A stretch of 64,000 nt of DNA from Opitutales bacterium (GTDB lineage Bacteria > Verrucomicrobiota > Verrucomicrobiia > Opitutales > UBA953). Within the stretch, counting starts at the first letter, position 1. Each line of letters begins with the position of its first letter. A program made the position numbers and the translations under genes. Location: the NCBI GenBank assembly GCA_044350605.1, contig JBILHF010000003.1, positions 3,401 to 67,400 on the forward strand, read 5' to 3'. Shown piece by piece: positions 34,944 to 64,000 of this stretch. The notes below the pieces were generated by a model. The model ran no database searches. It was not told the DNA's origin and saw only the letters and a program-made list of their open reading frames with translations.

Positions 34944-37900
34944 ATGCTTATCCAAGAGTCCCGTACCTACCAACTGGCCAAGGCCGCGCTGCTCGCCGTC
35001 CTGCTCGCCGTGACCCCGGTCACCGCCGTCCTGCGAGCGCAGACCAAGCCCCTGCCCACCGCCGAGAAGCAGGAAGACCCGTTGAACGTGCTCTACAAGG
35101 CCGCCGACAAGGCCTTCGAAGAGAAGAAGTACAAGGAGGCCCTCGATCTCTTCCAGGAACTCGAGGACAAGGCCGGCGACGTCGCCAACAGCATGAAGGC
35201 GGTCCTCTCCTTCCGCAAGGCCACCTGTCTCTTCTTCATGAAGGACTGGCCCAAGGCCCAGGTCGAACTCACCACCTTCCTCGATAAATACCCCAAGGGA
35301 ACCGAAGATTTCTTCGACGGCGACAATCGCCGCGGCACCGCCGAACTGATCCTCATCGAAGCCTTCTCCAAGCAGGGCAAGTGGGATCAGGCCCTCGCCC
35401 GCCTCGAGAAGATCCGCACCAACGCGCTCGCCCGCCCCGAGGAACGCGTCAGCGCCTTCACCCTTTCGGCCCAGATCGTGGTCGACCGCGCCAAGTCCTC
35501 GACCGACGAACTCAAGAAGGCCGCCTACTCGCAGGCGATCAGCCTCCTCAAGCAGGCCACCGCCGAAGGCATCAATACGCCCGAACGCCGTGAAGCCGCC
35601 TATAAGCTGGTCGAGATGTATACGAAGCTCGGCCTGACCAAGGAGGCCACCCAGCTCAAGAGCGAGATCGACGCCCGCAGCACCGGCTCCCCGGTCGAAG
35701 TGGTGCGTTCCAACTTCCAGCGCCTGGAAATCGGCGACGCGCGTTTCGCGGCCGCCGAATCGGCCGCCGACGAGGCCTTCCGCGGCGACTTCTACCGCCA
35801 GGCCCTCAATAACTACCAGGGCACGCTGCGCCGCGTGAACCTCACCCGCTCCTTCGGTAAGGCGATCGAAGCCAAGCAGACCGAGGTCGAAGGCATGACG
35901 AAGGCCGCCCCGAAGCCGAACGCCGAACAGGCCGACGCCATCCGCCGCGCGCAGCTCGACCTCGAACAGTTCAAGAAGATCGAGGCCGAATTCAAGGCCA
36001 ACAAGGACTACGACGCCTTCATCTCCTACCGCATCGGTCTCTGCCTCCTCGAACTGAAGCGCCCGTGGGAAGCCCACGTGGCCTTCCTCGACATCTTCGA
36101 GAACAGCCCGGAATTCAGCCGCATCGCCGGCGCCTACTACTACCACATCGTCGCCCTGCGCCGGATCGGCCGCAACACCGAGGCCCAGACGAAGTGCAAG
36201 GAATTCATCCAGAAATTCCCGAAAGACGAGATGGTGTCGTCCATCGCCCTCATCCTCGGCGACATCTCCCAGGAGCGCGAAGAATTCCCCGAAGCCATCG
36301 CCCACTACAAGTGGGTGCAGGCCAACGTGGCCAACCTCACGCCTGAGGTGGCCGAAGAGATCGATTTCCGGATCGCCGCCTGCCTTTTCTCGCAGGTCGA
36401 CTGGGCGCCCGCTTCGAAGGCCTTCGAGGCCTTCCTCAAGAAATACGAGCGCTCGTCCGTCCGCCAGCAGGTCCTGTACATGAACGCGCTCTGCTCGTTC
36501 TTCCAGGGCAAGTACAAGGAGACCAAGATCGACTTCGACAAATACCAGCAGGAATACCCGAAGGGCCAGTTCATCCCCGACGTCCGCTACCGCCAGGCGA
36601 TCGTGAAGTTCGGCGTCAACCCGCCCGATATCGCCGGCACCATCAAGCTCTGCGAAGACTGGCTCAAGGATTACGCCAAGGACCGGACCGACGAAGTCAT
36701 CGCCCAGACCCCCGAGGTCTACACCCTGATCGGCGACGCCAACATCCGTCTCGCCGACGAGCTCGACAAGAAGGTCAAGGCCGCCGACATCGACCTGCGC
36801 GTCAACCTGAAGACCCCTGACCGCGCCAAGTTCGCCGCCATCAAGGACAAGCTCGAGAAGGAGAAGGAAGCCGTCACCGGCAAGGCGATCGACGCCTACG
36901 AGGCCGCCGCCAAGAGCGCCCGCACCAATCCGCAGGCCCTCGAGTTCGTCCTCGGTGAGCTGCGCAAGCTCCTCCCCGGCCGCGGCGAGCACAAGCGCAT
37001 GCGCGACCTGTTCAAGGAGATCTTCGACTGGGACCATAACGACCCGAAGGCGATGACCTACCTCTACGAGGTCATCCGCTCCACCGAACGCATGGGCGAC
37101 ATGCCCGAGTTCGCCCAGCAGGCCGAGAAGGTCCGCAAGGATCTCAGCGCCAAGCTCGCCGACGGCCGCAAGGCCGTCGACCAGCTCGAGCGCAAGCAGG
37201 GCGTCACCCGCCCCGAGATCGACACCGCGAAGGAAGCCGTCAAGAAGCTCTCCGCCGAACTCGAAGCCGAACTCGCCAAGGTCGAGGTCAAGCGCCAGTC
37301 CTCCATCGCCGAGCAGAAGAAGCGCGCGCTGAAGATCCTCTCCGACGCCGTCGCCGAATCGATCAACGACCGTAAGCAGGAAGGCACCGAGAAGCTCATC
37401 GTCTTCCTCGCCGAGAAACTCGCGCGCAAGATCAAGCGCGTGAAGGCCGGCGCCAAGCCCGAGCCCGGCGCCTACACCAGCGCCGACGCCGAGAAAGAGC
37501 TGACCAAGCTGCTTCGTCTCGACGAAAACCGCGCCTCCCTCGTCGCCCAGGCCCGCGGCTTCTTCGCCCTCGGCCAGCTCGCCGTGTTCACGCGCGAGCC
37601 TGAGAAGACCGCCGCCAACTTCGCCAAGATCGCCGCCAACTTCAAGGCCGAGGAACTCAACCCGACCATCCTCGCGCTCGTCGGCGACAGCCTGCTAGCC
37701 AAGAACGAGACCAAGAAGGCGGAGGAATACTTCCGCTACATCCTCGAGTTCGCCCGCTCCTCGGAATACGCCGACTACGGCTTCGCCGGCCTCGCCGAAA
37801 TCCGGCTCGGCGAGAAGAAGTATGCCGAGGCGCTCTCCCTCTGCGACGAAGCCATCGACAACAACATCCTGATGTCGAAGGAGCTCGACCTGCGCTTCAC

Positions 37901-38606
37901 CCGCGCCCGCGCGCTCGCCGAACTCTCGAAGCTCGACGACGCCTTCAAGGCCTTCGAAGAGATCATCCGCACCAAGGAATGGCGCGGCGAGAAGACCGCC
38001 GCCTCCCTTTACTGGCTCGGCCAGCTGCATGAGCGCAACGCCGGCCTGATGGCGGCAGGGAAACCGAGCCTCATCACGAAGCCGAAGTCTTCGACCGACG
38101 CGACGCTCGTGCCGAAGGAGATGGCGGGCACGTCGCCGATCTCGGGCGCCGCGCCGCTGACCGTCAAATTCTCCGCCAGCGCGCCGGCCGCGGGCAAGGT
38201 CAGTTATCTCTGGGATTTCGGCGAGAAGGGCGCTACCTCGACCGAAGCAGCCCCGTCCTATGCTTACGCCGCCGCGGGAGAGTTCACCGCCACGCTCACC
38301 ATCAAGGTGGACGGCAAGGAGCAGAGCAAGACGACCGTCACGATCAACGCCCTCGCCAACAACGAGCCCGAAAACGCGAAGGATGCCTACAACAAGTCCA
38401 TCGCCTACTACCGCCGCTGCCACATGACCTGGAAGAAATATGAGATCTGGGCCGCGAAGTCCTACTTCGGCGAAGCCAAGATCCTCGCGACCAAGCTCGA
38501 ACAGAAGGACGCCGCCAAGCGCCTCCTGCAGGAGATGCTCGAGAAAGACCGCATCAAGGACACCCGCGAAGGGGTCGAAGCCAAAGCCTACCTCCTCGGA
38601 CTCTGA
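34944..38606 (+). CDS. Giant secreted TPR-repeat protein (~1220 aa) with an embedded PKD domain
   Basis: I prefer the start at MLIQESRTYQLAKAALLAVLLAVTPVTAVLRAQ (signal-like). TPR-like helical hairpins run throughout. The PKD block reads APLTVKFSASA..GKVSYLWDFGEKG......PSYAYAAAGEFTATLTIKVDG. Confidence 0.8.
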   Translation: MLIQESRTYQLAKAALLAVLLAVTPVTAVLRAQTKPLPTAEKQEDPLNVLYKAADKAFEEKKYKEALDLFQELEDKAGDVANSMKAVLSFRKATCLFFMKDWPKAQVELTTFLDKYPKGTEDFFDGDNRRGTAELILIEAFSKQGKWDQALARLEKIRTNALARPEERVSAFTLSAQIVVDRAKSSTDELKKAAYSQAISLLKQATAEGINTPERREAAYKLVEMYTKLGLTKEATQLKSEIDARSTGSPVEVVRSNFQRLEIGDARFAAAESAADEAFRGDFYRQALNNYQGTLRRVNLTRSFGKAIEAKQTEVEGMTKAAPKPNAEQADAIRRAQLDLEQFKKIEAEFKANKDYDAFISYRIGLCLLELKRPWEAHVAFLDIFENSPEFSRIAGAYYYHIVALRRIGRNTEAQTKCKEFIQKFPKDEMVSSIALILGDISQEREEFPEAIAHYKWVQANVANLTPEVAEEIDFRIAACLFSQVDWAPASKAFEAFLKKYERSSVRQQVLYMNALCSFFQGKYKETKIDFDKYQQEYPKGQFIPDVRYRQAIVKFGVNPPDIAGTIKLCEDWLKDYAKDRTDEVIAQTPEVYTLIGDANIRLADELDKKVKAADIDLRVNLKTPDRAKFAAIKDKLEKEKEAVTGKAIDAYEAAAKSARTNPQALEFVLGELRKLLPGRGEHKRMRDLFKEIFDWDHNDPKAMTYLYEVIRSTERMGDMPEFAQQAEKVRKDLSAKLADGRKAVDQLERKQGVTRPEIDTAKEAVKKLSAELEAELAKVEVKRQSSIAEQKKRALKILSDAVAESINDRKQEGTEKLIVFLAEKLARKIKRVKAGAKPEPGAYTSADAEKELTKLLRLDENRASLVAQARGFFALGQLAVFTREPEKTAANFAKIAANFKAEELNPTILALVGDSLLAKNETKKAEEYFRYILEFARSSEYADYGFAGLAEIRLGEKKYAEALSLCDEAIDNNILMSKELDLRFTRARALAELSKLDDAFKAFEEIIRTKEWRGEKTAASLYWLGQLHERNAGLMAAGKPSLITKPKSSTDATLVPKEMAGTSPISGAAPLTVKFSASAPAAGKVSYLWDFGEKGATSTEAAPSYAYAAAGEFTATLTIKVDGKEQSKTTVTINALANNEPENAKDAYNKSIAYYRRCHMTWKKYEIWAAKSYFGEAKILATKLEQKDAAKRLLQEMLEKDRIKDTREGVEAKAYLLGL

Positions 38607-38611
38607 ACGCC

Positions 38612-39628
38612 ATGCGCCACCCCCTCCTCCTTGCCGCCTTCGCGCTGCTCGCCGCCGCCACGTCGCCGGCCCAGACCTTCGTCTTCAAGGGCGAAAAATG
38701 GGAGATCAACGACCCCTTCAAGCTGGACAACTCCGTCCCGCCGAAGCCGGTCGTCGACGCCAAGAAAGGCGTCATCAACGTGGTCAAGGGAACCGTCGAC
38801 CGCACGAGCAACCAAGGTGGCTTCGAGGTCGTCCTGACCCGCAAGCTTTCCGAGGTCACCGAAATCGTCTGGCCGATGCCCGCCCGCCTCCAGGAGGCCC
38901 AGAACAACGTCAACCGCGGCGAACCGGCCAAGGCCCTCGACAACGCCGAGGCCGTGCTGAAGTTCTTCGAGCCCCTCAAGAACGTCCCGGGCTCCTGGTG
39001 GGTCAAAGCCTCCCTCATCAAGCTCGACGCCCTCGATCGTCTTGAGAACGACGCCGCCACGAACAGCTTCCTCGCGACCTTCGAAAAAGAAGAAGCCGCC
39101 AAGCAGCCCGAAGTCGCCACCCAGATCCAGCTGGCCAAGCTCATGCTGCGCGCCCGCAAAGGCGACCACGAAGCCGTGATCCGCGAGGCCACCGAGCTGC
39201 TCACGAAGGTCGATAGCTCCGAGCTCCAGGCCCGCCTCCACCTCACCAAGGGCAACTCCCTCCTCGCCGCCAAGAAGTATGAGGCCGCGATGACCACCTA
39301 CCTCCGCGTGCCGGTCTTCTTCGGTTCCGAGGCCGAACTGATTCCCAAGGCCCTCCTCGGCGCGGCCCGCGCCTTCCGTGGCATGGACAGCCCCGCCCTG
39401 CGCGACCAGAAACTCGAAGCGATCTCCAACCGCTACCTCTACGACATCATCGTTTCCTTCCCGGTCTCCAAGGAGGCCGAAGAAGCCAAGAAACTGCTCC
39501 CCCCGGAGGAGCGCGCCAAGGCCGAAGCCGACCAGAAGAAGATCGCCGCCGGCGGTCCCCTCCCCGAAGGCGTCATCATGGCCAAACCCAAGCTCGCCGC
39601 CGAAGAGAAGGTCGAAGGCAACAAGTGA
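38612..39628 (+). CDS. Secreted TPR-like helical protein (338 aa)
   Basis: The signal peptide MRHPLLLAAFALLAAATSPAQT is followed by a helical-repeat middle region and a K/E/A-rich tail. The gene starts 5 nt after the giant TPR gene and lies upstream of exbB. Confidence 0.7.
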   Translation: MRHPLLLAAFALLAAATSPAQTFVFKGEKWEINDPFKLDNSVPPKPVVDAKKGVINVVKGTVDRTSNQGGFEVVLTRKLSEVTEIVWPMPARLQEAQNNVNRGEPAKALDNAEAVLKFFEPLKNVPGSWWVKASLIKLDALDRLENDAATNSFLATFEKEEAAKQPEVATQIQLAKLMLRARKGDHEAVIREATELLTKVDSSELQARLHLTKGNSLLAAKKYEAAMTTYLRVPVFFGSEAELIPKALLGAARAFRGMDSPALRDQKLEAISNRYLYDIIVSFPVSKEAEEAKKLLPPEERAKAEADQKKIAAGGPLPEGVIMAKPKLAAEEKVEGNK

Positions 39629-39681
39629 GTCCTTGCCCCTTTCCAAAACCTAACCTAGATACCAACCTACACCCCATCATC

Positions 39682-40473
39682 ATGAAGATGAACCTACGTT
39701 CCGCCCTCCTCAGCACCGCCCTTCTCGGCCTGTTGACCGTCACCGCCTCGGCCCAGGAGGCCGCCGCTGCCGGCGCGCACCACAAGACCCTGGCCGACCT
39801 CTTCATCGAAGGCGGTTGGGTCATGTATCCGATCACCCTCTGCTCCGTCGCGATGATCTGGTTCATGGTCGACGGCTTCATCAAGACCAGCGCCGGCAAG
39901 ATGTATCCCGCCGAGCACGTCACCCAGCTCCGTGAGCTCTTCAAGAAGGGCGACTACGTCGGTGCCTACGCTTTCGCCAAGGCCGCCGGTTCCCCCGTCG
40001 CTGACGTCGTGCGCGCCGGCGTCGCCTTCACTCCGGATGGCAAGACCATGACCGAAGAGGCCATCCTCTCGGAAATCGTCCGCATCCAGGGCGAACTCAA
40101 GGGTCGCTCCTCCTACCTCTCCGTGATCGGGGTCTGCACCCCGATGATCGGCCTCACCGGCACCGTGACGGGCATGATGAGCGCGTTCGAAACCCTCGGC
40201 ACCTCCGGCGTGGGCGATCCTTCCAAGCTCTCCGGCGCGATCGGTGAAGTGCTCGTGGCGACCGCCTCCGGCCTCTTCATCGCCATCCCGGCGTTCATCG
40301 CCTACTACCTCCTGGCCAACCGTATCAACAAGGGCATCCACGACATCACCGAGATCGTGACCGGCCTCTTCCGCGCTTTCCCCTACGACGAAGTCGAAGG
40401 CCGCAAGGTCGGCGACGAAGAGATCTACGCCGCCAAGCCGGATTGGAGCGCTTCTTCGAACGTCCAGGGCTAA
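39682..40473 (+). CDS. exbB: MotA/TolQ/ExbB proton-channel protein with an N-terminal signal peptide
   Basis: MKMNLRSALLSTALLGLLTVTASAQ is followed by WVMYPITLCSVAMIWF...GVCTPMIGLTGTVTGMM.AF......GAIGEVLVATASGLFIAIPA. Confidence 0.88.
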   Translation: MKMNLRSALLSTALLGLLTVTASAQEAAAAGAHHKTLADLFIEGGWVMYPITLCSVAMIWFMVDGFIKTSAGKMYPAEHVTQLRELFKKGDYVGAYAFAKAAGSPVADVVRAGVAFTPDGKTMTEEAILSEIVRIQGELKGRSSYLSVIGVCTPMIGLTGTVTGMMSAFETLGTSGVGDPSKLSGAIGEVLVATASGLFIAIPAFIAYYLLANRINKGIHDITEIVTGLFRAFPYDEVEGRKVGDEEIYAAKPDWSASSNVQG

Positions 40474-40505
40474 GTCCCTTCCACCCCTAAACCAGCAGCA
40501 AGACC

Positions 40506-40946
40506 ATGGCAGGCGGAGGCGGAGGCGGAGAAGGCGAACCGGAGTTCCAGGTCGCGCCGATGATCGACGTGCTCCTGGTGCTGCTCATCTTCTTCATGTC
40601 GATCACCTCCTCGCAGGTGCTCAAGGTCGACAAGAACATCTCGCTCCCGGTCGCCTCGCACGGCGTCAAGCGCGACGACAAGGCCGCGGCCGGCCTGATC
40701 AACATCTCGTGGGACAAGACCACGGGGCAGGCCAAGTACAAGCTCGACGACCGCGAACTCGACCCGAACGACAAGGAAGGCATCGCCAAGGAACTCGCCG
40801 ACCGCAAGGGCACCAACGAGAAGTATCGCCTGCTGGTCCGCGCCGACAAGGAATGCCACGCCAAGTATGTCTCCAAGGCCCTCGAATGGGGCGCCGAAGC
40901 AGGCATCGACAACATCGCCTTCTCCGGCCTCAACCACGAGGAATAA
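40506..40946 (+). CDS. exbD: ExbD/TolR biopolymer transport protein (copy 1)
   Basis: FQVAPMIDVLLVLLIFFM contains the conserved TM Asp. A periplasmic domain follows. Confidence 0.88.
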   Translation: MAGGGGGGEGEPEFQVAPMIDVLLVLLIFFMSITSSQVLKVDKNISLPVASHGVKRDDKAAAGLINISWDKTTGQAKYKLDDRELDPNDKEGIAKELADRKGTNEKYRLLVRADKECHAKYVSKALEWGAEAGIDNIAFSGLNHEE

Positions 40947-40949
40947 CCC

Positions 40950-41393
40950 ATGAAACAGAAGCCAGAAACCGCCGACGCCTCCCCGGGCTTCCAGATCGCC
41001 CCGATGATCGACGTGGTCTTCGTGATCATGCTCTTCTTCATGGTCATGGCCGGCGCCGTCAAGGTGGAGCACGAACTCAAGACGACCCTGCCTGGCAACG
41101 CCGAGACCGCCAAGGAGACCGAACTGCCCGACGAAGTCACGATCGGCGTCAGCGAGACCGGCGAGATCACCCTCAACGAAGATCCGGTCGGCCCTCCCGG
41201 TGACAAGCTCCTCGAGAACCTTTACAACCAGATGAAGCTGATGGGTCAGGCTGCCGAGCAGTCCAAGACCAAGCTGCTCATCACGGTGCAGGCCGAAGAG
41301 AACGCCCGCTACGAGCGCGTGATCAACGTCCTCGATATCCTGGCTAAGGCGAACATCACGAACGTGACGTTCGCGGTGTCCGACACCGAGTAA
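40950..41393 (+). CDS. exbD: ExbD/TolR biopolymer transport protein (copy 2)
   Basis: FQIAPMIDVVFVIMLFFM...LLITVQAEENARYERVINVLDILAKANI. The gene starts 3 nt after copy 1. Confidence 0.88.
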   Translation: MKQKPETADASPGFQIAPMIDVVFVIMLFFMVMAGAVKVEHELKTTLPGNAETAKETELPDEVTIGVSETGEITLNEDPVGPPGDKLLENLYNQMKLMGQAAEQSKTKLLITVQAEENARYERVINVLDILAKANITNVTFAVSDTE

Positions 41394-53842: not shown

Positions 53843-55588
53843 ATGTCAGCCGACCCCCACTACGTCTACGGCCAAGGGCAGAGCTCGCGCTCGAGCTATC
53901 CTATCCTGCTGGGGACGGTGACCGTCGAAGTGGTGGGCTACAAAGAGCGCCGCTACCGCCCCAACTGGCGTCGGATCGGCCTGCTGTTCCCGGTCTTCCT
54001 GCTCCTGCTGTGGGTCGGGCTTTCCGAAGCGAACTACTTCAAGGAGCGCTTCATGAACGGCATCCCGACGACGCGCCGGGCCGACATGTATCTCTACCTG
54101 CCCGACACGGCGGCCAACTCGGTCGCGAACCTCTTCCTCGGCAAGGAGCAGGTTCGCCTGCGTGAGCGGGAGAAGCTGCTGACCGCGAAAGATTCCTACG
54201 GACGGTCGGCGCACCTCTACCGCAAAGGCGAATACTTCGTGAGCGTCGCGAAGGAGGCCCTCGCCCGCCAGGATTACGCCGAGTTCTCCCGCTACATCGG
54301 GACCGGCGCTCAGCTGAGCCCGGCCAACCTGGAAGCCCAGCGCCTCTGCGCCGATCTCTTCTTCGCGTTCCAGCGCCCGCTCGACGCCTACCAGCTGCTC
54401 GAAGAATCCCTCGTCTTCGCCAAGCAGGACCGCGAATACTTCCGCCAATACGTCCAGCGCTGCTTCATGCTGGACCAGGACGCCCGCCTCATCGCCACGG
54501 CCACGAAATACCTGGGCGACTCGGCGGTGGCCGAGGACATCCGCGCGGACCTCCGGCTGGCCGCCGCGCAGGCCCACTTCCTTCGCGGAGACTTCGCCGA
54601 TGCCGCCCGCCTGATCAAGGAACACCGTCTCGACCAGACCGCCGACGGCTACCTCCTCAACTGCCAGCTCCTCTGGGAAAGCGGCGACCGCACGGGTGCG
54701 CTCGCCGAACTCGATGCGGCGCTCGCCGTCTTCCCCGCCGGCGTCCGCCTGCTCGAGATGAAGGCCCGCTGGCTCAAGGAAAACGGTGAATTTTCCCGGG
54801 CCAAGGACACGCTGGACCTACTCGCCATCAGCCAGCCCGGCCGACCAGGCCCGCTCATCCAGTCGCTCTACCTGCTGCCCGGCGAAGAAGGTCGCGTGCG
54901 CCGGGAAGCGTTGACCGAGAAGATCATCGCGACGTTCGGCACCCAGGAGCAGCCGATGCTCGACCTCGCCCGCTTCGGTAATGACACGGCGGACGTCGCG
55001 CTCACCGCCCGGCTGGCGAAGCTCGCGCTCGAACGCAAGTTCGGCAATCGCGTGCGCTTCGACCTCGTCCACGTGGAATGCCTGCTCAACGCCGGCCGCG
55101 CGCGCGAGACGATCCTGCTTGTCGACGCGTTATATAAGCAGGCCGAGCGCGACCAATGGGTCGCCGAGACGCGCATGGCTTTCGACGCCCTGCGCACGAT
55201 CGCCTACTTCGCCGACGGCCAGACTGAGATCGGCTCCATCAACCTGCAGAAGCTCCTGCAGCACCGGAAGGTGCCGCCGCAGGTGCTGGTGGCCGCCAGC
55301 CGCAAACTGATCGCCGCGCGCCGCTACGACGAGGCCAACGAAGTGCTCATCCAGGCCCACCTGCAGAACGAGACCAACCAGGCCATCCTGATGCAGATCG
55401 TGCGACTGAAGCTCGACCATCCGCTGATCTCCGCCGACCTCGAGACCTACCTGCGCCGGCTGATGCTCAACCGCCGCCCTTCGCCGGAAGTCCTCCGGGC
55501 CGCCTTGCGACGACTCGGTTCGGACACCTACCTTTTCTCGGCTGACCGCGAGAAGCTGCTGCGCGACGTCGAAGCCAAGATCAAGTAG
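53843..55588 (+). CDS. Membrane-anchored helical-repeat (TPR-like) protein, hypothetical
   Basis: One TM helix (IGLLFPVFLLLLWVGL) is followed by ~500 aa of helical hairpin-like sequence. I recognise no family. The 3' end overlaps the converging apbE-like gene by 8 nt. Confidence 0.65.
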   Translation: MSADPHYVYGQGQSSRSSYPILLGTVTVEVVGYKERRYRPNWRRIGLLFPVFLLLLWVGLSEANYFKERFMNGIPTTRRADMYLYLPDTAANSVANLFLGKEQVRLREREKLLTAKDSYGRSAHLYRKGEYFVSVAKEALARQDYAEFSRYIGTGAQLSPANLEAQRLCADLFFAFQRPLDAYQLLEESLVFAKQDREYFRQYVQRCFMLDQDARLIATATKYLGDSAVAEDIRADLRLAAAQAHFLRGDFADAARLIKEHRLDQTADGYLLNCQLLWESGDRTGALAELDAALAVFPAGVRLLEMKARWLKENGEFSRAKDTLDLLAISQPGRPGPLIQSLYLLPGEEGRVRREALTEKIIATFGTQEQPMLDLARFGNDTADVALTARLAKLALERKFGNRVRFDLVHVECLLNAGRARETILLVDALYKQAERDQWVAETRMAFDALRTIAYFADGQTEIGSINLQKLLQHRKVPPQVLVAASRKLIAARRYDEANEVLIQAHLQNETNQAILMQIVRLKLDHPLISADLETYLRRLMLNRRPSPEVLRAALRRLGSDTYLFSADREKLLRDVEAKIK

Positions 55589-56516
55589 CCGCTTCTTCGG
55601 AGGAAGTCGGCTTGGCTTCGGGAGCCGGGCGTTCCGTCACTTCGAAATAGGTCACCGAACCGAGCTTCGTGCCGTCCGGCAGCCAGAGACCACGGCTGCA
55701 GCCACGGTTGACGAACTCTTCGGCCTCGGAGGCGTTGAGCACGCAGGCGGCCATGGCGAGCCCTTCGGCCTCAAGGGCGGAAGTCGCGATGGCTCGCACC
55801 GGACCCGGGAGCGATACCGGCTGGCCGGTGCGCGGGTCGACGAGGTTATTGCGGGCCGAGTCGGCCGTCTTGCTGGCCATCGCGAAACGGCAGAGTTTGA
55901 TCTCGGACTGCGCGCCGACGCCGATGCGCCAGCCGGCGGATTCACCGGGCGGATCGAGGGCGAGGGTCACGCTGCCCGAAGCCATCAGCAGGGCGCGGTG
56001 GATACCCCAGCTGCTCTCGAGCATATCGGCCATGCGGTCGAGCGCGTAACCGCGGACGATCGCGCCGAAGTCGACGGCGCAGCCGAACTTGTCGCAGTGC
56101 AGCTCGCAGCCCTCGAGACGGAACGCGCCTTCGCGATAGGCGTTCATGACCTGGGTCCAGGCGGCGTCGTCGGGATTGAATCCGAGGTCGCCACGCTTCT
56201 TCCAATAACTGAACTGGGCGCCGGCGGTGACGTCGAAGGCCTTGCCGGTCTCGGCGGCGACGTCCTTCGAGAAATTCCAGAGCGCCTGCACGTGCTCCGA
56301 GGCGGCGATCATCGCGCCCTCGGGCATATAGTTGATCGACGCGACCGGGCCGCTGTCATGACGGACGTCGGTCTGGAAATCCAGGTCGTCGAGCAGCTGG
56401 AACAAGGCCTCGGCGGCGTTGCGGGCGTAGACGCCGTCCTCCGCGGCGATGCGGACCCAGAAACGGGAGCCGAAGGCCTCGTGCGAGAAGTTGTGGATGA
56501 TGGGGGTGTCTTCCAT
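55581..56516 (-). CDS. apbE: ApbE-family FAD:protein FMN transferase-like protein with no signal peptide or lipobox
   Basis: HEAFGSRFWVRI...AFDVTAG...DFGAIVRGYALDRM...NLVDPRTGQP...AEGLAMA matches the ApbE pattern (H.AMGT, DLGGIAKGYA.D, IIDPRTG.P). The N-terminus MEDTPIIHNF is not secretory. Confidence 0.7.
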   Translation of the reverse strand: MEDTPIIHNFSHEAFGSRFWVRIAAEDGVYARNAAEALFQLLDDLDFQTDVRHDSGPVASINYMPEGAMIAASEHVQALWNFSKDVAAETGKAFDVTAGAQFSYWKKRGDLGFNPDDAAWTQVMNAYREGAFRLEGCELHCDKFGCAVDFGAIVRGYALDRMADMLESSWGIHRALLMASGSVTLALDPPGESAGWRIGVGAQSEIKLCRFAMASKTADSARNNLVDPRTGQPVSLPGPVRAIATSALEAEGLAMAACVLNASEAEEFVNRGCSRGLWLPDGTKLGSVTYFEVTERPAPEAKPTSSEEAAT

Positions 56517-56519
56517 GGC

Positions 56520-57914
56520 TTACTTTCCGATGAAAACGCTTTCGTAGCCTTTGGCAACCAACACCCAGTAGCGGTCGCCGCCTTCGCGGAGGGTCACGCT
56601 GGAGACCGCATAGCCCGGGACGAAAGGTTCGCTGGCGTCGGTAGCGAGAATCAGGCGAAGGGGGGCTTTGGCCGCCTGCGGGAAGTCACTGAAGCCGACC
56701 TTATATTGCCTGAGATAATACGGGAGCGGCCAATAATGCCCTCCCTCCACGGCGACATAGAATTCATCGCCGCAGGCCTTAGCCAGCCTGCCGACACCCG
56801 CATTGAACAAACCGAGGTCCGACGTGCGCGTGTGCTCGGCCAAGGAAGGACGGGCGAGCATCGCGACCGCCGCCATACCGACGGCGAGTAAGGCGACGCG
56901 CGTGACCCGACCGTCGAGCAGATGCGGCAAGGCGAGCGTCAGCGGCAGCGAGAAGACCAGCAGCAGTAGCCACGGCGTCTTGTAAGGCAAAGCGAAGTGG
57001 AAGAGGAAGACGAGGAGCGCGACCAAGCACGGCAGATCGGCCTCATGTCGGCTCCGCCATCCGGCGCGCGAAAGACCGGAGCGGGCGAGGGCGAAGACGG
57101 CCAGCCATGCGGCGGCCCAGCCCCAAGGCGCGAGACTTTCGGCGAAGAGAGTGTCCTCCGATCGGCCGCTGGCGACGCCGAGCGAACGCGCCAACTGCAG
57201 CCACCAGGTCTTCAGGCCGGGCAGATCCGTGAAGCCGACGGATTGGAACAAGGCCCAGGAAGCGACCAGACCGAAGCCGAAACGCAGCCAGCGGCGATCG
57301 GGCACGAAGCGGCGCAGGAGCAACAAGGCCAAGAGAAAGAAGACCAGGTAGGCCGCCGCGGTGACCTTGCAGGCGAGAGCGAAACCGAAAGCCGCGCCGG
57401 AAAGCAACCACCAGCGGGAAGTCGGCGGCGACCCTTCGGCACGCATCCATAAGGCGACACCCCAGACGAAGCCCGTCACCAGCAGCATCTCCTGGACGAA
57501 GTAATAGCTGAACGGCGTGCACCCGCCGGTGAGCACGATGAAGGCGGCCGTCACATACCGCGGCCCCTTGCCGACGCCCGGCAGGATCAAGGCTGCCGCC
57601 GCCATGAGCCCAAGGAAGATCGAGACGATGCTGCGCAGGTAATGCTCCGACATCTCAGTCGGCGCGGTCCCGGTCACCTTGGCGGAGATGAGCAGCGCCG
57701 TGGCCAGCGTCGGTCCATGGAACTTGTCCTGATTCGTGCTATAAGCCTTACCCTCGGACAACTCCTTGGCCAAGGACCACTGGACGGCTTCGTCGGCATG
57801 CAATGATGCGGGCGGGACGAAGGTGATCGCCGACCAGAACAGAGCGACGGTGACGACGATGGCCAGGCCGAACCGCGAGACCGTGCCTGACTGGTTCGTC
57901 GCGTCGACCATCAC
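56520..57914 (-). CDS. GT-C fold membrane glycosyltransferase-like protein (GT39/ArnT/PMT_2-like)
   Basis: The protein has about 10-12 TM helices. The first extracytoplasmic loop carries HADEAVQW, a D-E motif typical of GT-C enzymes. A soluble C-terminal domain follows. The ATG overlaps the thioesterase stop. Confidence 0.6.
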   Translation of the reverse strand: MMVDATNQSGTVSRFGLAIVVTVALFWSAITFVPPASLHADEAVQWSLAKELSEGKAYSTNQDKFHGPTLATALLISAKVTGTAPTEMSEHYLRSIVSIFLGLMAAAALILPGVGKGPRYVTAAFIVLTGGCTPFSYYFVQEMLLVTGFVWGVALWMRAEGSPPTSRWWLLSGAAFGFALACKVTAAAYLVFFLLALLLLRRFVPDRRWLRFGFGLVASWALFQSVGFTDLPGLKTWWLQLARSLGVASGRSEDTLFAESLAPWGWAAAWLAVFALARSGLSRAGWRSRHEADLPCLVALLVFLFHFALPYKTPWLLLLVFSLPLTLALPHLLDGRVTRVALLAVGMAAVAMLARPSLAEHTRTSDLGLFNAGVGRLAKACGDEFYVAVEGGHYWPLPYYLRQYKVGFSDFPQAAKAPLRLILATDASEPFVPGYAVSSVTLREGGDRYWVLVAKGYESVFIGK

Positions 57915-58342
57915 ACGCCGAAATGCTTCTGCAACGCGGTCTTGATGTCGAGCGGCACGAGGGCGGCCGACATCGGACCCTGCGCTTCGCGCCAGGCGTA
58001 GACGGTCGTGAGGGCGCCCTTGGCGACGGCGCGTTCGCCGACGGCGGCGGTGAAGCCCCAGACGAGTTTCTTGTCGCCGATCTCGATCGGCGTCAGCGCG
58101 ACGGTCACGACGTCCTCACGGTAGATCGGGGAAAGGAAGTCGCACTCAACGCGTACCCGGGGAAACCCGGTGAGCTTGGCGCCCTCGGTGCGGAGGAACG
58201 GCAGTTTGAGATGACGGAAGAGGGCCTCTTCGGTCGCCTCGACCCAGAAGAAGACCGTCGAGAAATGCACGATGCCCGCGGCGTCCGTGTCGGAGAAGTT
58301 GGCGCGGTAATCCGCCGTGAAAGGAGCCATGACTCCATCCAA
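57911..58342 (-). CDS. Hotdog-fold acyl-CoA thioesterase (4HBT/YbgC-like)
   Basis: The product contains YRANFSDTDAAGIVHFSTVFFWVEATEEALFRHL, the catalytic Asp region typical of YbgC/4HBT. Confidence 0.75.
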   Translation of the reverse strand: MDGVMAPFTADYRANFSDTDAAGIVHFSTVFFWVEATEEALFRHLKLPFLRTEGAKLTGFPRVRVECDFLSPIYREDVVTVALTPIEIGDKKLVWGFTAAVGERAVAKGALTTVYAWREAQGPMSAALVPLDIKTALQKHFGV

Positions 58343-58367: not shown

Positions 58368-59447
58368 TCAAGGCGCCTTCCGGCCGCCCTTACGGAGCCA
58401 GGAGACCGAGGTCCAGGCGCCGCCGGAGGCCGTCACGCACGCGCGCAAGAAGGCCTGCGGCTCCTGCTGGACGCTGAAGAGGTATAGCCTCGGACCACGG
58501 CCTTGCGCGCCCTTGGCGAAGGCGTCCAGCCACTCGCGCTGCCAACGCGTCTGCCCCTTCTGCGCGCCCCCGAACTTATGATAAGAGCTGTCGGACCAGA
58601 CCATCTTGGGTTCGCCCTTCTTGGCCACGTAGAGACGGACGCCGTCCTGAAAATCCGAGAAGACCACCAAGGCATCATAGGGCTCGGCCAAGAGCCGATC
58701 CATCCATGCGCCCAGCGAACCCTTCTCGCAGGCCGTGCGGACCTTCGCCTGCACCAGGCGTCCCGCGGGCGTCAGGGTCTCGACGACGGTCTGAGTCGGC
58801 CCTTCGCGGAGGCGGGGCGCCTGACCATGGAAACTGCGGCCGTAGACGACCTTGTCGCCCAAGCCGACGACGCGGGCGCCATCGAAGCGGAAGACGTCCG
58901 CGTCCGGAAACTGCTTCCGGATCTCGGCTTCGACGCGCGGCAGGTAGGAACGCATCGACCCTGAGCAATCCAGGTAGACCGCCACGCGCTGCGCGCGGAT
59001 GAACGCACCCATCACTGGACGGCCGGTGAAGCCCATGCGATTACCCAGCCCTGAGCCCAAGCCGTTGCCACCGAAGGCGCCTTGTCCGCGGCCGAACCCA
59101 CCCTTCCCTTTGCCTGACGCCAAACCGGCCAGTCCTGCTTCAAGGGTCGGTAGCTTCATTGGCGGCAGCGCCAGCGTCCCGCTCGCTGACTTTGAGACCA
59201 GTCGCTTCGCCGGCACCGCGACCTTCGGCTTGCGTTGGACCGGGTGAACGGAGGCCGGCGCGCCCGACTTACCTCCGGCGACGGCGTGCGCGACGAACAC
59301 CTTAGCCGGCGGCGGACGAGTCGGCGTGCGCAGGACGACCCAGCAGGCGAGCACGACGAGCAAGCCATGGAAGAGCAGCGACGAAGCCAGGCTGCGCCAA
59401 GCGCGCGGGCGCGGGCGAGAAGCCACGAGAGGATCGGCCAAAGACAT
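58368..59447 (-). CDS. Membrane-anchored vWA/MIDAS-like protein, paralogue 1 (SxxxH TM anchor, Gly-rich linker, vWA-like domain)
   Basis: The TM helix is AWRSLASSLLFHGLLVVLACWVV. The linker reads KSASGTLALPPM...GKGKGGFGRGQGAFGGNGLGSGLG...RPVMGAFI. The domain reads RVAVYLDCSGSM...VEAEIRKQFPDADVF...GSLGAWMD...YDALVVFSDFQDG...GPRLYLFS. Confidence 0.75.
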   Translation of the reverse strand: MSLADPLVASRPRPRAWRSLASSLLFHGLLVVLACWVVLRTPTRPPPAKVFVAHAVAGGKSGAPASVHPVQRKPKVAVPAKRLVSKSASGTLALPPMKLPTLEAGLAGLASGKGKGGFGRGQGAFGGNGLGSGLGNRMGFTGRPVMGAFIRAQRVAVYLDCSGSMRSYLPRVEAEIRKQFPDADVFRFDGARVVGLGDKVVYGRSFHGQAPRLREGPTQTVVETLTPAGRLVQAKVRTACEKGSLGAWMDRLLAEPYDALVVFSDFQDGVRLYVAKKGEPKMVWSDSSYHKFGGAQKGQTRWQREWLDAFAKGAQGRGPRLYLFSVQQEPQAFLRACVTASGGAWTSVSWLRKGGRKAP

Positions 59448-59541
59448 GGCCCGCAGGTTAGCGGGCCATCGTCGGACTCAAGGTCGAGCCCCGTCATCCA
59501 TCCCTGAGCCTTCGCCCCGGCGAAGTCCTCAGGATGGGGCC

Positions 59542-60291
59542 TCAGTTACCGGGACGGGGCGGGCCGTCGGGGCGCAGCCAATCAACGAGCGTGAATTTTC
59601 CGCCCGAGACGTCGGCGCACTTCTGGAGCACGCGCGTCGCGGGATGGCGGGTGGAGAAAAGATAGAGCACGGGTCCTTTGCCTGAGCGCGCGGCCTCGAA
59701 AGAACCGATCCACGAATCTTCCCAGACCTTCTCCGCGACCGTGCGGCTATCGGCGATCTCCGCTTCCGGCAGCGCACGCTGGGCCGCGTCATCGACATAG
59801 ACCTCACCCTTACCAGCCCGAGCCTGGATGACTGGGTCGTTGAAATCCGAGAAGATGACCAGCGCATCGTAACGCTTCTCGCGACGAAGGATATCGACCC
59901 AGGCGCCCACTGAGCCGACTTCGAAATTGCCGGCATAGCGCGAGAGGATCTCTCGGCCCACCGGCGTCATCCGGCTCGTGTCGACCGAGACGCGCGGCCC
60001 CGTGACCGGAGGACGATGAGCCAGGCCCATGAGGCCGCTTCCTCGGACGGCAGCACCATCGACCCAGACCTTGATCGCCGGCACGAGGAAAACATCGGCA
60101 TCGGGGAACTGCTTACGCACCTCCGCCTCGACCGCAGGCAGGGAGTCGGCCATCGAGTTCGAGCAATCAAGATACACGGCGATCCGGGGGCCGGACGTGG
60201 TCGCCGCGGGAAGTTCACCCACCTTGGCCGCATGCGCGAAGGCGGAAAGCAAGGCCAGGACGAGGGTCGTGATCAAACGAGAGGGGCTCAT
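59542..60291 (-). CDS. Secreted vWA/MIDAS-like protein, paralogue 2 (signal peptide only)
   Basis: The signal peptide is MSPSRLITTLVLALLSAFAHA. The domain reads RIAVYLDCSNSM...VEAEVRKQFPDADVF...GSVGAWVDIL..YDALVIFSDFNDP...GPVLYLFS. Confidence 0.75.
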   Translation of the reverse strand: MSPSRLITTLVLALLSAFAHAAKVGELPAATTSGPRIAVYLDCSNSMADSLPAVEAEVRKQFPDADVFLVPAIKVWVDGAAVRGSGLMGLAHRPPVTGPRVSVDTSRMTPVGREILSRYAGNFEVGSVGAWVDILRREKRYDALVIFSDFNDPVIQARAGKGEVYVDDAAQRALPEAEIADSRTVAEKVWEDSWIGSFEAARSGKGPVLYLFSTRHPATRVLQKCADVSGGKFTLVDWLRPDGPPRPGN

Positions 60292-60448
60292 TGGGGTGAA
60301 TCAATCCTAGGCGAAATCAAAATGAAAACAGCAGCAAAACCTTCCGTAAGGCGAAGTCCTCAGTCGGGACCGATGGCCGGAACGCCTCCAAACAGACGCC
60401 CCTCAACGACCCGAAGGCCGTGAGGGGCGGAGATCGCCGACGGAATCG

Positions 60449-62431
60449 TCAGCGCGTCGGAGCGGCACCGCGGTTGCTTCCCGCGCCGGAACCGGCCGGC
60501 CGGAAACGGAGCACGCTGTTGGCGCCTGCCGCCGTAGCCGGAGCAGACATCTCGACGGTGAAGAAACCGGGCGACTTCTTATCCGGGGTCACGGCGACGA
60601 CCTTGGTGCCAGCCGGGAAGCGATTGTCCTGGATGAGCATGCCCGAACGGAGGTCGATCGAACCAGAGACGTCTTCGATCGTCTTGGAGTCCTTCGCGAG
60701 GGTGCCGACCGCCTGGATGAGCGGAATAAAGGCGTAAACCGCGTTGAGGGCGTCCTCGGTGAGCGGGACGGAGACGGTCAGCTGCTTGTCGATCACGCGC
60801 TTCATGCGCTTCTTCTCCGGATCCTCGGGGTCGAGGACATTCTTGAACGTCGGCATTGCCGTGAGGGTCGCGCCATCCGGGACGCCTCGGCCGCTGACCG
60901 GCATGCCGACATAGAGGTCGTCGTAGTTATGCAGGTCGTTGAGGGTATTGGTGCCCTTCTTGCTACTGCCGAATTTCACCATGATCGCTGCTCCCTCGGA
61001 GGCCGAGACGCAGCGCTGAAAGATCGTGCCGGGCTTGTTGCCATAGGCACGGGAAGTGCTGATGAGATAGAGACGGGGGCCCTTGTTCTCGCGGGCGCCG
61101 GCGAAGGCCTTCTCCCACTCGGCCTCCCACTTACGCTCTTCGGGGAAACGCTTGTCGCCGCCGTTATTGCAGGTGATGCGTCCGCTGGCGAGGGCCGTCA
61201 GGGGCTTGCTGAGCGTGAAGCTCACGTTCTCCTTGATCTCGGTCACCGTGGTGCCGGGGGGGATGCCGGAGCCGAGGGCGACCATGCCGACGATCAGGCC
61301 GGAGGTGTCCTTGCACTGCACGACGTTCTGACCGGAGCCACCGCCGTTGGCGATCAACGTCACGGAACGGGCGAAGCCGCCGCCCTGATTGGTGCGATCG
61401 GAGAAGACGACGGGCGGGTCGGCGCGCATGCCCTTGTCAGGCTTGTAGGCGGAGACGTTGCCGATCGCCTTGGTGCGGATCTGGCGGACGCCGTCCTGGA
61501 AGTCAGAGAAGATGATGAGCGCGTCGTAGGTGCGGTCGTCCTTGAGGATATCGACCCAGCCGCCGACGGAGCCCGTCTTGAAATTGGCGGCGTATTTCTT
61601 GTAGATGGCGCGCCCTTGGGTCGTGAGTTTGTTCACGTTCGTCTCGGTCGGGACCAGTTCGCCCTTCGCGTTCTTCTTGGAGCCGGCACCGGTCGGACGG
61701 TTCAGGTAAGGAGCACCCTTAAACTTATCACCGCCGACGATCTCGTTGTCATGGACGTCGATGAACACACCGTTGCTGAGGTAGACGTCCGCGTCCGGGA
61801 ACTTGTCGCGGATCTCGGCCTCGACGCGCTCGAGGTAGGGCAGCATGGAGGCCGAGGCGTCGAAATAGACCGCCAGGCGCTGGGAGAAGATGTTCGCGCC
61901 CATGACCGGCTTCGCGACGAAGTTCTTGCCGCCGCCGGAGCCCATGCCGCGGCCGGTGCCGATGCCGCCGCCGGAGCCGCCGCCGAAGCCCTTGGAAGAG
62001 CCGCCGGCCATCGCGCCGGAGACCATCGACGAGGCCGAAGCGGAGTTCGGCATGTCAGGCAGGGCGATGGAAGCGGAGGCGCTCTTGGAAGTGATGCGGG
62101 TGGTCGTCTTGGCCAGCGACTTCACGTTCTTCGGCTTGATCTTGTGCTGGGTGTTCTTGACGCGCTCGCCGCCGGAACCGCCGCCCGCGCCGGTCGCGAA
62201 CTGGTTAGGGTCCTTCTTGGCGTTGTCCGTGACGGTCGAGACCACGAAGGCGGCCGCGACGAAGATGAGCAAGGCGTGGAAGGCGATCGACACCGAGAGA
62301 CCGCTGGCGCCGATGCGCTGCCAGAAGGACTTCTTGCCGCGCTTGGTACCAAGGATCTCGTCGGTCTCGATCTCCTTGACGGGGGCCGGAGGGACGTCGC
62401 CAGGGGGAGGCGTAGGGGTTTCTTCGCTCAT
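60449..62431 (-). CDS. Membrane-anchored vWA/MIDAS-like protein, paralogue 3 (660 aa, with extra repeat modules)
   Basis: The TM helix is GLSVSIAFHALLIFVAAAFVV. The linker reads KSASASIALPDM...SKGFGGGSGGGIGTGRGMGSGGG...KPVMGANI. The domain reads RLAVYFDASASM...VEAEIRDKFPDADVY...GSVGGWVDIL..YDALIIFSDFQDG...GPRLYLIS. Three GM.V.G.G(I/V)P.GT-type repeats are also present. Confidence 0.78.
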   Translation of the reverse strand: MSEETPTPPPGDVPPAPVKEIETDEILGTKRGKKSFWQRIGASGLSVSIAFHALLIFVAAAFVVSTVTDNAKKDPNQFATGAGGGSGGERVKNTQHKIKPKNVKSLAKTTTRITSKSASASIALPDMPNSASASSMVSGAMAGGSSKGFGGGSGGGIGTGRGMGSGGGKNFVAKPVMGANIFSQRLAVYFDASASMLPYLERVEAEIRDKFPDADVYLSNGVFIDVHDNEIVGGDKFKGAPYLNRPTGAGSKKNAKGELVPTETNVNKLTTQGRAIYKKYAANFKTGSVGGWVDILKDDRTYDALIIFSDFQDGVRQIRTKAIGNVSAYKPDKGMRADPPVVFSDRTNQGGGFARSVTLIANGGGSGQNVVQCKDTSGLIVGMVALGSGIPPGTTVTEIKENVSFTLSKPLTALASGRITCNNGGDKRFPEERKWEAEWEKAFAGARENKGPRLYLISTSRAYGNKPGTIFQRCVSASEGAAIMVKFGSSKKGTNTLNDLHNYDDLYVGMPVSGRGVPDGATLTAMPTFKNVLDPEDPEKKRMKRVIDKQLTVSVPLTEDALNAVYAFIPLIQAVGTLAKDSKTIEDVSGSIDLRSGMLIQDNRFPAGTKVVAVTPDKKSPGFFTVEMSAPATAAGANSVLRFRPAGSGAGSNRGAAPTR

Positions 62432-62784: not shown

Positions 62785-62832
62785 TAAAAAACAGGCGGCT
62801 TGCATAGGGGTATGCAAGCCGCCTCCTTTTTT
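62785..62832. terminator. Strong bidirectional terminator between the tRNA trailer (+) and pilC/gspF (-)
   Basis: A 14-bp perfect stem AGGCGGCTTGCATA-GGGG-TATGCAAGCCGCCT is flanked by AAAAAA on the 5' side and CCTTTTTT on the 3' side. Confidence 0.85.
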
Positions 62833-62910: not shown

Positions 62911-64000
62911 TCAGCCGCCGCCGGTCATCTTCGTGATGAGCGCGATGAGCGGGAGGAACATCGCGAGCACGATCGTGCCGACCACGACGGCGAGGAAGAC
63001 GATGAGGATCGGTTCGATGATGGAAGTCAGCGCGGTCACGGCGTTGTCGACTTCTTCGTCGTAGATGTCGGCGACGCGGTTGAGCATCTCGGGCAGCTGG
63101 CCGGTCTCTTCGCCGACCTGGATCATGGACGTCACCATCTGCGGGAAGACGCCGGACTGCTCGAGCGGCACCGACAGCGGCTCACCGTCGCGGACGCGGT
63201 CATGGACGCGCTCGAGCGATTTGGCGATGACGACGTTGTCGAGCGTATCGCGCGTGATCGTGATGGACTGCAGGATCGGGACGCCCGAGGCCATCAGCGT
63301 GCCGAAGGTGCGGGCGAAGCGGGAGACGGAGACGATCTGCACGAACGTGCCGACCTTCGGCAAGCGGAAGATCATCTTGTCGAAGAGTTCCTTGCCCTTT
63401 TCGGAGGCGAGCCAGCTCTTGAGACCGAAGTAGAGGCCGAAGATGGCGATCGGGGTGGCCCACCAGAATTCGGTGAGGAACCGCGAGATACCCACGACGA
63501 ACTGCGTCAGCGGAGGCATGGTCGTCTTCTGGCTGCTCAGCAGGTTCTGGAACGACGGCACGACCTTCACCATCAGGATGTAGACGATGATGACGGCGAC
63601 GGACATCACGACGCCCGGGTAGACCATCGCAGACTTGACCTTCTTCTGGATGCGCTCGGCCTTTTCGCGGAACTTCGCGAGACGGTCGAGGACCTTGTCC
63701 AGCACGCCGCCCGCCTCGCCGGCGCGCACCATGTTGACGAAGAGCTTGTCGAAGACCTTCGGGTGGGCCTGGAGGGCTTCCGAGAGGTTGTTACCCTGGG
63801 AGACGCTCTCGGCGATATTGGCGAGCACGGCCTTGAAGGCGGGGTTACGCTCCTGCTTGGTGATCAGCTCGAGCGCGCGGAGGAGCGGCAGGCCGGCGAT
63901 GATGAGCGTCGCCAGCTGGCGGGTCATCACGGTCACGTCGTTCTGCGTCACCTTCGAACCGAAGGAGAAGCCGGCCTTGGCCGGGGCGGCGGCCACCGCG
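62911..64000 (-). CDS. Type II secretion / type IV pilus platform protein (GspF/PilC family); the 5' end probably lies beyond the window
   Basis: The T2SSF domain occurs twice: MTRQLATLIIAGLPLLRALELI...MVRAGEAGG.LD..L and FARTFGTLMASGVPILQSI...MIQVGEETGQL...L. The frame is open to the window edge. The GTG at 63996 is an unlikely true start. Confidence 0.88.
   Translation of the reverse strand, partial: AVAAAPAKAGFSFGSKVTQNDVTVMTRQLATLIIAGLPLLRALELITKQERNPAFKAVLANIAESVSQGNNLSEALQAHPKVFDKLFVNMVRAGEAGGVLDKVLDRLAKFREKAERIQKKVKSAMVYPGVVMSVAVIIVYILMVKVVPSFQNLLSSQKTTMPPLTQFVVGISRFLTEFWWATPIAIFGLYFGLKSWLASEKGKELFDKMIFRLPKVGTFVQIVSVSRFARTFGTLMASGVPILQSITITRDTLDNVVIAKSLERVHDRVRDGEPLSVPLEQSGVFPQMVTSMIQVGEETGQLPEMLNRVADIYDEEVDNAVTALTSIIEPILIVFLAVVVGTIVLAMFLPLIALITKMTGGG

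Follow-up and report, generated by a model that had tools for sequence, protein, structure and literature searches.

Candidate membrane-anchored proteins with a TonB/TolA-type helix motif and a divergent vWA-like head, encoded by tandem genes in an Opitutales bacterium (Verrucomicrobiota)

TonB and TolA transmit force from inner-membrane motors through a single transmembrane (TM) helix. Cryo-electron microscopy has shown that S16/H20 of TonB and S18/H22 of TolA contact ExbB S34/W38 and TolQ S28/W32, respectively, and that, within SHLS, Leu and Ser form the less conserved half (PMC12215075). The D-box of TonB is a short proline-flanked strand bound by the ExbD dimer (PMC10907165), and Asn is a full substitute for TonB His20 according to Swayne and Postle (2011) as cited in PMC8928145. 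A further class, the ‘vWA force transducers’, was proposed by Williams-Jones et al. in 2025 from computation alone (Mol Biol Evol 42:msaf138; PMC12204202). In these proteins, a TM helix bearing an SHLS motif leads, via a disordered linker that contains a motor box, to a C-terminal domain of von Willebrand A (vWA) fold. They are distributed over Proteobacteria, Planctomycetes, Verrucomicrobia, Bacteroidetes, and Rhodothermaeota, with no reported function or phenotype (PMC12204202). In Planctomycetes-Verrucomicrobia-Chlamydiae (PVC) bacteria, their genes frequently lie downstream of a gene for a TPR protein, a tolQ-like gene, and two tolR-like genes (PMC12204202). Here, a comparable set of three tandem genes is described from a stretch of 64,000 nt of contig JBILHF010000003.1 of an Opitutales bacterium (GCA_044350605.1), which is referred to in its full length as the window and has a G + C content of about 66%. 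The original prediction for this locus regarded a TonB-like anchor carrying a vWA head as an undescribed architecture. Since anchored vWA transducers resembling TonB and TolA had already been proposed by Williams-Jones et al. (PMC12204202), this claim of novelty is superseded, and the finding is an unannotated family of a recently proposed, still uncharacterised kind.

Anchor, linker, and head of the three paralogues

Three consecutive open reading frames (ORFs) on the minus strand were confirmed at exactly the positions given in the original prediction. Paralogue 1 (58368..59447; 359 amino acids) comprises a cytoplasmic tail, a TM helix at residues 16–40 with S23-x3-H27, a linker, and a vWA-like head. 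In paralogue 3 (60449..62431; 660 amino acids), the cytoplasmic tail is rich in Pro and the TM helix contains S48-x3-H52; they are followed by a linker and a head with the motif D191-x-S193-x-S195 that carries an inserted module of ~70 residues and is followed by a C-terminal extension of ~170 residues. Paralogue 2 (59542..60291; 249 amino acids) contains a putative Sec signal peptide (residues ~1–21) and a head only, and lacks both anchor and linker. The domain common to all three proteins spans ~210 amino acids with 42–44% identity, and their similarity is far above chance: paralogues 1 and 3 align from the TM helix via the linker into the head (BLASTP, E = 1e-37), and paralogue 2 matches paralogue 1 with E = 9e-43. 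The predicted conserved blocks AVY(L/F)D.S.SM, VEAE.R..FPDADV, GS.G.W.D, YDAL..FSDF.D, GP.LYL.S, and C...S.G were all recovered in the alignments. The same holds for the elements predicted to be shared by paralogues 1 and 3, namely the SLLFH (residues 23–27) and SIAFH (residues 48–52) motifs, the two boxes KSAS..(L/I)ALP.M and (R/K)PVMGA.I, and the Gly-rich stretches; the boxes and Gly-rich stretches are kept family-wide. Paralogue 2 would, as predicted, carry a signal peptide alone: its N-terminus, MSPSRLITTLVLALLSAFAHA followed by A, has the form of a typical Sec signal, and its AlphaFold model has an N-terminal helix at residues 3–24; the protein passes directly from the signal into the head.

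The TM anchors are encoded at 59328..59402 (minus strand; paralogue 1, AlphaFold helix and motif alignment) and at 62231..62305 (minus strand; residues ~43–67 of paralogue 3, motif alignment). Of the representatives at ≤50% identity, 48 show a hydrophobic helix upstream of the head, and 47 of these possess an [S/T]-x3-H motif (S in 46 of these 47, H in all 47), and both the presence of an SxxxH anchor and the near-invariance of its Ser and His are thus borne out. The helix further contains Leu at +7 (43/47), Ala at +11 (41/47), and Val at +15 (39/47) relative to the Ser, as well as a Trp at +14; the Ser, the His at +4, and these residues lie on one face. In a subgroup of distant relatives S-x3-N replaces S-x3-H. 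Positive charges before the helix, together with the export signal of the anchorless paralogue, point to an N-in, C-out topology. The distance from the TM Ser to strand 1 of the head is 119–158 residues (130–158 in all but two members), and proteins of up to 721 amino acids therefore differ mainly in their cytoplasmic N-terminal extension. Such extensions, ~200–340 residues long before the same TM anchor, were observed in P0142, P0146, P0149, P0156, P0162, P0166, and others; a few of the extended members have weak Pfam matches to zinc-ribbon or coiled-coil families, and the periplasmic part is constant in length.

The linker of ~100 residues is disordered in the model of paralogue 1 and conserved throughout the family. 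It consists of an FxTGAGGG box, a basic stretch, an (R/K)I(T/A)SKS..S.I.LP(D/E).P box, a GxGxGxG-rich segment, and NFV..VMG strands that pack onto the head. The (R/K)I(T/A)SKS..S.I.LP(D/E).P box is strand-prone, lies 50–60 residues past the helix, and partially fits the published motor-box pattern. A profile of the anchor had no match outside the family among all ORFs of the family loci. In a search of E. coli loci (355 ORFs) it aligned TolA in register at a score of 1.2 bits, and the ten best matches did not include TonB, so that there is no statistical support for an anchor similarity beyond the motif. The assignment of the anchor to the TonB/TolA type, as read from the sequences, is accordingly well supported by conservation but not by statistics.

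The vWA-like head of paralogue 1 (residues ~141–350; 58398..59027, minus strand) was delimited by an AlphaFold model and Foldseek searches. The AlphaFold2 model has a predicted local distance difference test (pLDDT) score above 90 over residues 140–350, and that of paralogue 2 has a mean pLDDT of 86.8 and a predicted template modelling (pTM) score of 0.86. The modelled order of elements, β1-α1-β2-β3-long helix-β4-hairpin-α-β5-α-β6, fits the vWA order, and D160-x-S162-x-S164 (58956..58970, minus strand), a motif of the type found in metal ion-dependent adhesion sites (MIDAS), is placed at the C-terminal end of strand 1. When the model of paralogue 1 was compared to the Protein Data Bank (PDB) with Foldseek, vWA domains accounted for 15 of the 17 top matches, including Rpn10, TFIIH p44/p34, CLCA1, vWF A1, and TEM8 (E 2e-3 to 5e-2, probability up to 0.97). 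For paralogue 2, the VWA domain of CLCA1 ranked first, with E 6e-3, a probability of 0.94, and a target-normalised TM-score of 0.47; TEM8 came second, and esterases of the PatB/SGNH type appeared below the vWA matches with probabilities of 0.3–0.44.

Conservation in the head follows the same residues. Invariant in 47 aligned members (numbering of paralogue 1) are A156, V157, D160, S162, S164, V172, A183, D184, Y257, D265, and F266, and in 15 distant relatives the invariant core is reduced to D-x-S-x-S-M and a D-x-x-D after strand 4. The predicted conservation of the MIDAS-type residues is therefore found for DxSxS in all 47 members and 15 distant relatives, and across the same set D265 of the FSDFxD segment is invariant and D268 nearly so. 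A putative MIDAS-like metal site would be made up of the invariant residues in D-x-S-x-S and (F)SDFxD.

The earlier claim of a vWA/MIDAS head nevertheless stands only in part. Supporting it are the top-ranking vWA matches in the PDB for two models and the invariance of DxSxS and of the Asp after strand 4. Opposed to it is, first, the outcome of the profile check, in which the three window proteins had no match to Pfam VWA models at E < 1. The models VWA, VWA_2, VWA_3, and VWA_CoxE also match none of the 47 members, and a Pfam scan of these members at E < 10 revealed no recurrent family and a lone VWA_CoxE match with E 0.18. Second, no PDB match reached E ≤ 1e-3, all target-normalised TM-scores remained below 0.5 (0.42–0.47), and root-mean-square deviations were 7–10 Å. 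Third, no equivalent of the MIDAS Thr was found, as the alignment of the 47 members contains no conserved loop Thr or Ser; S244 is not invariant and sits within the long helix of the model. An hhalign comparison of the family with E. coli YfbK placed the family DxSxS on the DTSGS of YfbK, but covered the strand-1 segment only and had a probability of 15%. Established vWA/MIDAS domains, such as CLCA1 VWA, the integrin I domains, and E. coli YfbK, share with the head its modelled order of elements, the DxSxS that follows strand 1, and the Asp that follows strand 4. The head differs from them in having neither a profile-level sequence match nor an identified MIDAS Thr, and, in the model, in a single long helix in place of α2 and α3, a β-hairpin after strand 4, and the absence of the last helix. 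On the basis of the models, the head is read as a vWA-like domain that is truly divergent and combines a MIDAS-type DxSxS with acidic residues following strand 4, an interpretation with moderate support.

An alternative would be that the head adopts another three-layer α/β fold (SGNH- or flavodoxin-like) and that the TM motif is an oligomerisation or stability feature resembling TonB by chance. The same uniformly weak structural matches and missing VWA profile match speak for it, as do the PatB/SGNH-type esterases just under the vWA matches of paralogue 2 and the fact that no resemblance between the anchor and TonB or TolA of E. coli can be demonstrated statistically. This explanation appears quite unlikely: vWA domains rank first for both models (probability 0.84–0.97), DxSxS and the acidic residues after strand 4 are invariant, there is neither a conserved His nor a Ser-His-Asp hydrolase arrangement, and an invariant polar His in a single-pass helix that is naturally replaced by Asn only is the pattern of TonB. 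Interpretation of the head as an SGNH hydrolase was set aside because no His is conserved in it.

Distribution and history of the family

The three proteins had no match at E < 1 in a scan against Pfam and NCBIfam and none up to E = 10 in a sequence search of the PDB. Among PDB sequences, a family profile matched only the Gly/Ser linkers of engineered fusion proteins and no vWA domain. When 1.84 billion cluster representatives were searched with the head profile, only 116 clusters (50% identity level) were detected at E ≤ 1e-3, 52 of them below 1e-30, and the family is therefore small. Pfam searches of ten of the weakest matches in this representative set revealed no VWA domain, and TPR in only a few doubtful ones, and every match in a bridging search with the distant relatives was free of Pfam domains and product names. 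Wherever a taxonomic name was available, the family members belonged to Verrucomicrobiota, and the close orthologues, which are 76–92% identical for paralogue 1, stem from metagenome-assembled genomes (MAGs) of freshwater Opitutales/Opitutae. Several public MAG records in which this locus of Opitutae is found bear the titles ‘Akkermansia muciniphila’ or ‘uncultured Klebsiella sp.’ (L031, L054, L021, L058), apparently as taxonomic mislabels. Because every public copy is named ‘hypothetical protein’, the family lends itself well to a new model in Pfam or NCBIfam.

Two copies, one of ~360 and one of ~430–720 amino acids and both of them anchored, are present in 47 loci, an arrangement that is read as the ancestral state. 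Three copies occur in 25 loci including the window, and a single copy is found in 17 loci, in many cases owing to contig ends. Paralogue 2 is confined to the subclade of the window (25 loci). In a distance tree, the large and small paralogues split before the Opitutae clade radiated, with orthologues down to ~60% identity, and the signal-peptide paralogue 2 branches with the lineage of the large paralogue. A recent duplication or gene conversion between paralogues 1 and 3, which had been suggested from their similarity at the DNA level, is disfavoured by these data: the best DNA block is 86% identical over 42 nt only, against the background of a G + C content at third codon positions (GC3) of 0.76–0.87 in this genome, and the large and small paralogues are already separate across the Opitutae clade. 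Gene conversion was thus rejected in view of the short DNA block of high GC3 and the old paralogue split in the tree.

A small module with the pattern (D/G)L.VGM.v.G.G(I/V)P.GT.vT...T.S.P.T is present in three copies in paralogue 3 (residues ~375–420, ~500–575, and ~590–655), one inside the head and two forming the C-terminal extension. Local alignments of the copies gave z-scores of 5.7, 4.6, and 2.7 against shuffled sequences, and the module had no Pfam match. Orthologues of paralogue 3 outside the subclade of the window have a length of 430–450 amino acids only and lack the extra modules.

Genomic context and the TonB-less motor locus

As noted in the original prediction, a pilC/gspF gene coding for a T2SSF platform protein (62911..63996, minus strand; domain scan) is located upstream on the same strand, where the window ends within it; in relatives, it closes a cluster of pilB-pilT-pilB-pilC. 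Between pilC and paralogue 3, within a gap of 480 bp past pilC, lies an intrinsic terminator-like hairpin (62793..62824, minus strand) with a 14-bp stem containing 8 GC pairs and a T-run, the hairpin and T-run being readable on both strands. Downstream, paralogue 1 is followed after 25 bp by a 4HBT thioesterase gene (57911..58342, minus strand; YbgC/FadM-like, 28 bits, below the NCBIfam cut-offs), a gene for a GT-C/PMT-like membrane protein (56520..57914, minus strand; 464 amino acids, PMT_2/Agl23-like), and apbE (55581..56516, minus strand), the successive spacings from paralogue 1 to apbE being 25, -4, and 3 bp. Considering the terminator and the 480-bp gap on one side and the tight spacing on the other, the three genes therefore most likely begin their own transcription unit. 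A contig of 518 kb that carries an 89%-identical orthologue has the gene order coaE, pilB, pilT-like, pilB, pilC, the genes for 660, 249, and 359 amino acids, 4HBT, PMT-like, and apbE, and the order pilC-family-4HBT-(PMT)-ApbE is kept across the Opitutae loci examined, its part pilC-family-4HBT in every one of them with enough flank. ApbE likewise adjoins, in divergent orientation, a distant member of the family (L082, L083).

This conserved order raises the possibility that the proteins are accessory parts of a type IV pilus or type II secretion-like machine (pilB-pilT-pilB-pilC), either as periplasmic adaptors or as a metal-dependent adhesion module, whose conserved helix face would rest on the pilus platform. 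Such a role is not without parallel, PilY1 being a pilus-associated protein with a vWA module. In Akkermansia, mucin uptake reportedly depends on a pilus locus (MUL2) as well as on Mul1 (PMC13174399, PMC12418764). The functional tie to pilC is, however, weakened by the strong terminator and the gap that separate it from paralogue 3, with paralogue 1 packed against the 4HBT, PMT-like, and ApbE genes instead. In addition, family members outside the Opitutae clade reside in unrelated housekeeping contexts without pil genes, the proteins appear to lack a prepilin-type N-terminus, and an association with pili leaves the Ser-x3-His/Asn signature unexplained. A pilus-related function is thus considered unlikely.

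Neighbourhoods of distant members and one metagenome scan revealed no recurring ExbB/ExbD, pil, or other partner. In a single case, a distant relative of the S-x3-N type (P0465) is encoded directly upstream of MoxR AAA+ and DUF58/VWA_2 genes (L103 10001-12957). MoxR ATPases are typically paired with vWA proteins, and the family might accordingly be viewed as anchored vWA proteins of the Bat/MoxR type, with the head serving as substrate or adaptor of a MoxR AAA+ protein (cf. BatA/BatB, ViaA) and no proton motor being involved. Like the family, BatA and BatB of MoxR operons are membrane-anchored proteins of the vWA type, but they match the Pfam VWA models, which the family does not, and a Ser-x3-His anchor is not known as a feature of Bat proteins. 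Neither MoxR nor DUF58 genes turned up among the scanned genes of the window or in the other loci with an inspected gene list. Furthermore, MoxR ATPases work in the cytoplasm while the head would be periplasmic, and neither the conserved helix face nor the conserved linker is accounted for, which renders this explanation highly improbable.

The candidate partner motor is encoded on the plus strand at 34842..41393, 17 kb from the family genes. Its first two genes code for a TPR/PKD protein of 1254 amino acids and a protein of 338 amino acids whose match to the Mul1B family of NCBIfam (E 1.1e-11) stays below the cut-off of that family. They are followed by an ExbB/TolQ-like gene (39625..40473, plus strand; domain scan) and two different ExbD/TolR-like genes (40506..40946 and 40950..41393, plus strand), in both of which the TM Asp is kept; the set of motor genes looks functional. 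The next gene is thrC on the opposite strand, so that no TonB or transducer gene follows the motor locus, and the TonB_C domain is absent from all window genes scanned; the predicted ExbB-ExbD-ExbD set without an adjacent TonB gene was thus confirmed. The motor-adjacent placement reported for vWA transducers is accordingly not seen in the window. Relatives with 76% identity (L101, L102) have the same arrangement of the motor locus, likewise without a transducer, and in a search for homologues of the second ExbD all matches listed (at least 120) were at least 76% identical and showed the same synteny.

Proposed function and comparison with known systems

The favoured reading is that the anchored paralogues are periplasmic proteins held in the inner membrane, which resemble TonB and TolA in their build, differ from them in the head, and are coupled to an ExbB-type motor; its chances of being correct are roughly balanced. 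By analogy with TonB S16/H20 on ExbB, the helix would dock to the outside of an ExbB/TolQ-type pentamer through its Ser and His, and the strand-prone box of the linker would be captured by the periplasmic ExbD/TolR dimer in the manner of the TonB D-box (motor box). The proton-motive force could thereby be coupled to the metal-dependent binding or release of a periplasmic or outer-membrane partner by the head. The two anchored paralogues, which are presumed to be the ancestral pair, might act as a heteromeric or an alternative pair, and the secreted paralogue 2 might be a soluble partner or competitor. The most likely motor would be the TPR-Mul1B-ExbB-ExbD-ExbD locus at a distance of 17 kb, and coupling to this nearby TonB-less locus is an attractive inference by analogy. 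A more far-reaching and distinctly doubtful version holds that the proteins are the missing force transducers of the TonB-less MUL1-type motor of Verrucomicrobiota, in which a metal-dependent vWA-like head, in place of a TonB C-terminal domain, would couple the proton-motive force to large-glycan uptake or to a partner associated with the outer membrane or with pili. The anchored pair would then be a heteromer and the secreted copy a soluble regulator, and the whole would represent a third functional class of Ton/Tol-like systems, with a sequence-distinct transducer family of its own.

Several observations weigh against a coupling of this kind, in addition to the limits of the head assignment and the missing statistical support for the anchor. 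No ExbB was found within flanks of up to 10 kb in ~100 loci around family members, and the only ExbD near the family across these loci is two genes away in L088. Where SHLS has Leu (+11) and Ser (+15), the anchor has Ala and Val, and the linker is Gly-rich, neither Pro-rich nor helical. The candidate motor box lies 50–60 residues after the helix, compared to ~12–15 in TonB. Finally, TM1 of the ExbB in the window has a Ser at W-5, whereas the spacing in E. coli is W-4, in a region that aligns poorly.

If the favoured reading is true, Verrucomicrobiota would possess their own Ton/Tol-like energy coupling, in which the transducer ends in a metal-dependent adhesion-type head and not in a TonB domain. 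This would help to explain how the outer membrane is energised in bacteria with TonB-less ExbBD loci, one type of which has been linked to mucin uptake in Akkermansia. The conserved residues provide concrete targets for mutation, namely the Ser and His of the TM helix, the LP(D/E)xP box of the linker, and the DxSxS and SDFxD of the head, and the anchorless paralogue 2 offers a natural control.

Compared to TonB and TolA, the family shares the N-in single-pass anchor suggested by its sequence, the Ser-x3-His on one helix face, a linker with a strand-prone box, and a globular C-terminal head. Like many tonB genes, its genes are orphans with respect to exbBD, and a YbgC-like thioesterase gene adjoins them; the tolQRA operon of E. 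coli begins with ybgC, and its tonB adjoins the thioesterase gene yciA. The family differs in the absence of a TonB_C or TolA_C domain (no Pfam or NCBIfam match) and in a head of different fold, as well as in the Ala/Val at +11/+15, the Gly-rich linker, the greater distance of the candidate motor box from the membrane, and a similarity that is confined to the motif. With the MUL1 system of Akkermansia (the TPR protein Mul1A and Mul1B), the window has in common a Mul1B-like protein encoded between a large TPR protein and ExbB-ExbD-ExbD, but the three family genes are located outside this MUL1-like locus.

The closest correspondence is with the vWA force transducers, in which a single TM helix bearing an SHLS-type His is likewise joined, through a disordered linker that contains a predicted strand, to a vWA-fold head replacing the C-terminal domain of TonB or TolA; for the family, the vWA fold of the head is a weak assignment. 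They also occur in Verrucomicrobia, and their gene order of TPR, tolQ-like, and two tolR-like genes recurs in the window. Distinguishing features of the family are its position 17 kb from the motor, after a pilBTC cluster, and its orphan state in all other contexts seen, as well as a head that all Pfam VWA models miss and a linker that is Gly-rich. The family is read, with the same roughly balanced chances, as a member or a close analogue of the vWA force transducers, the comparison with the Tichowtungia proteins being based on the description of their architecture. A further distinction from these transducers is the organisation of the family as an ancestral tandem pair, to which an anchorless secreted third copy is added in the subclade of the window.

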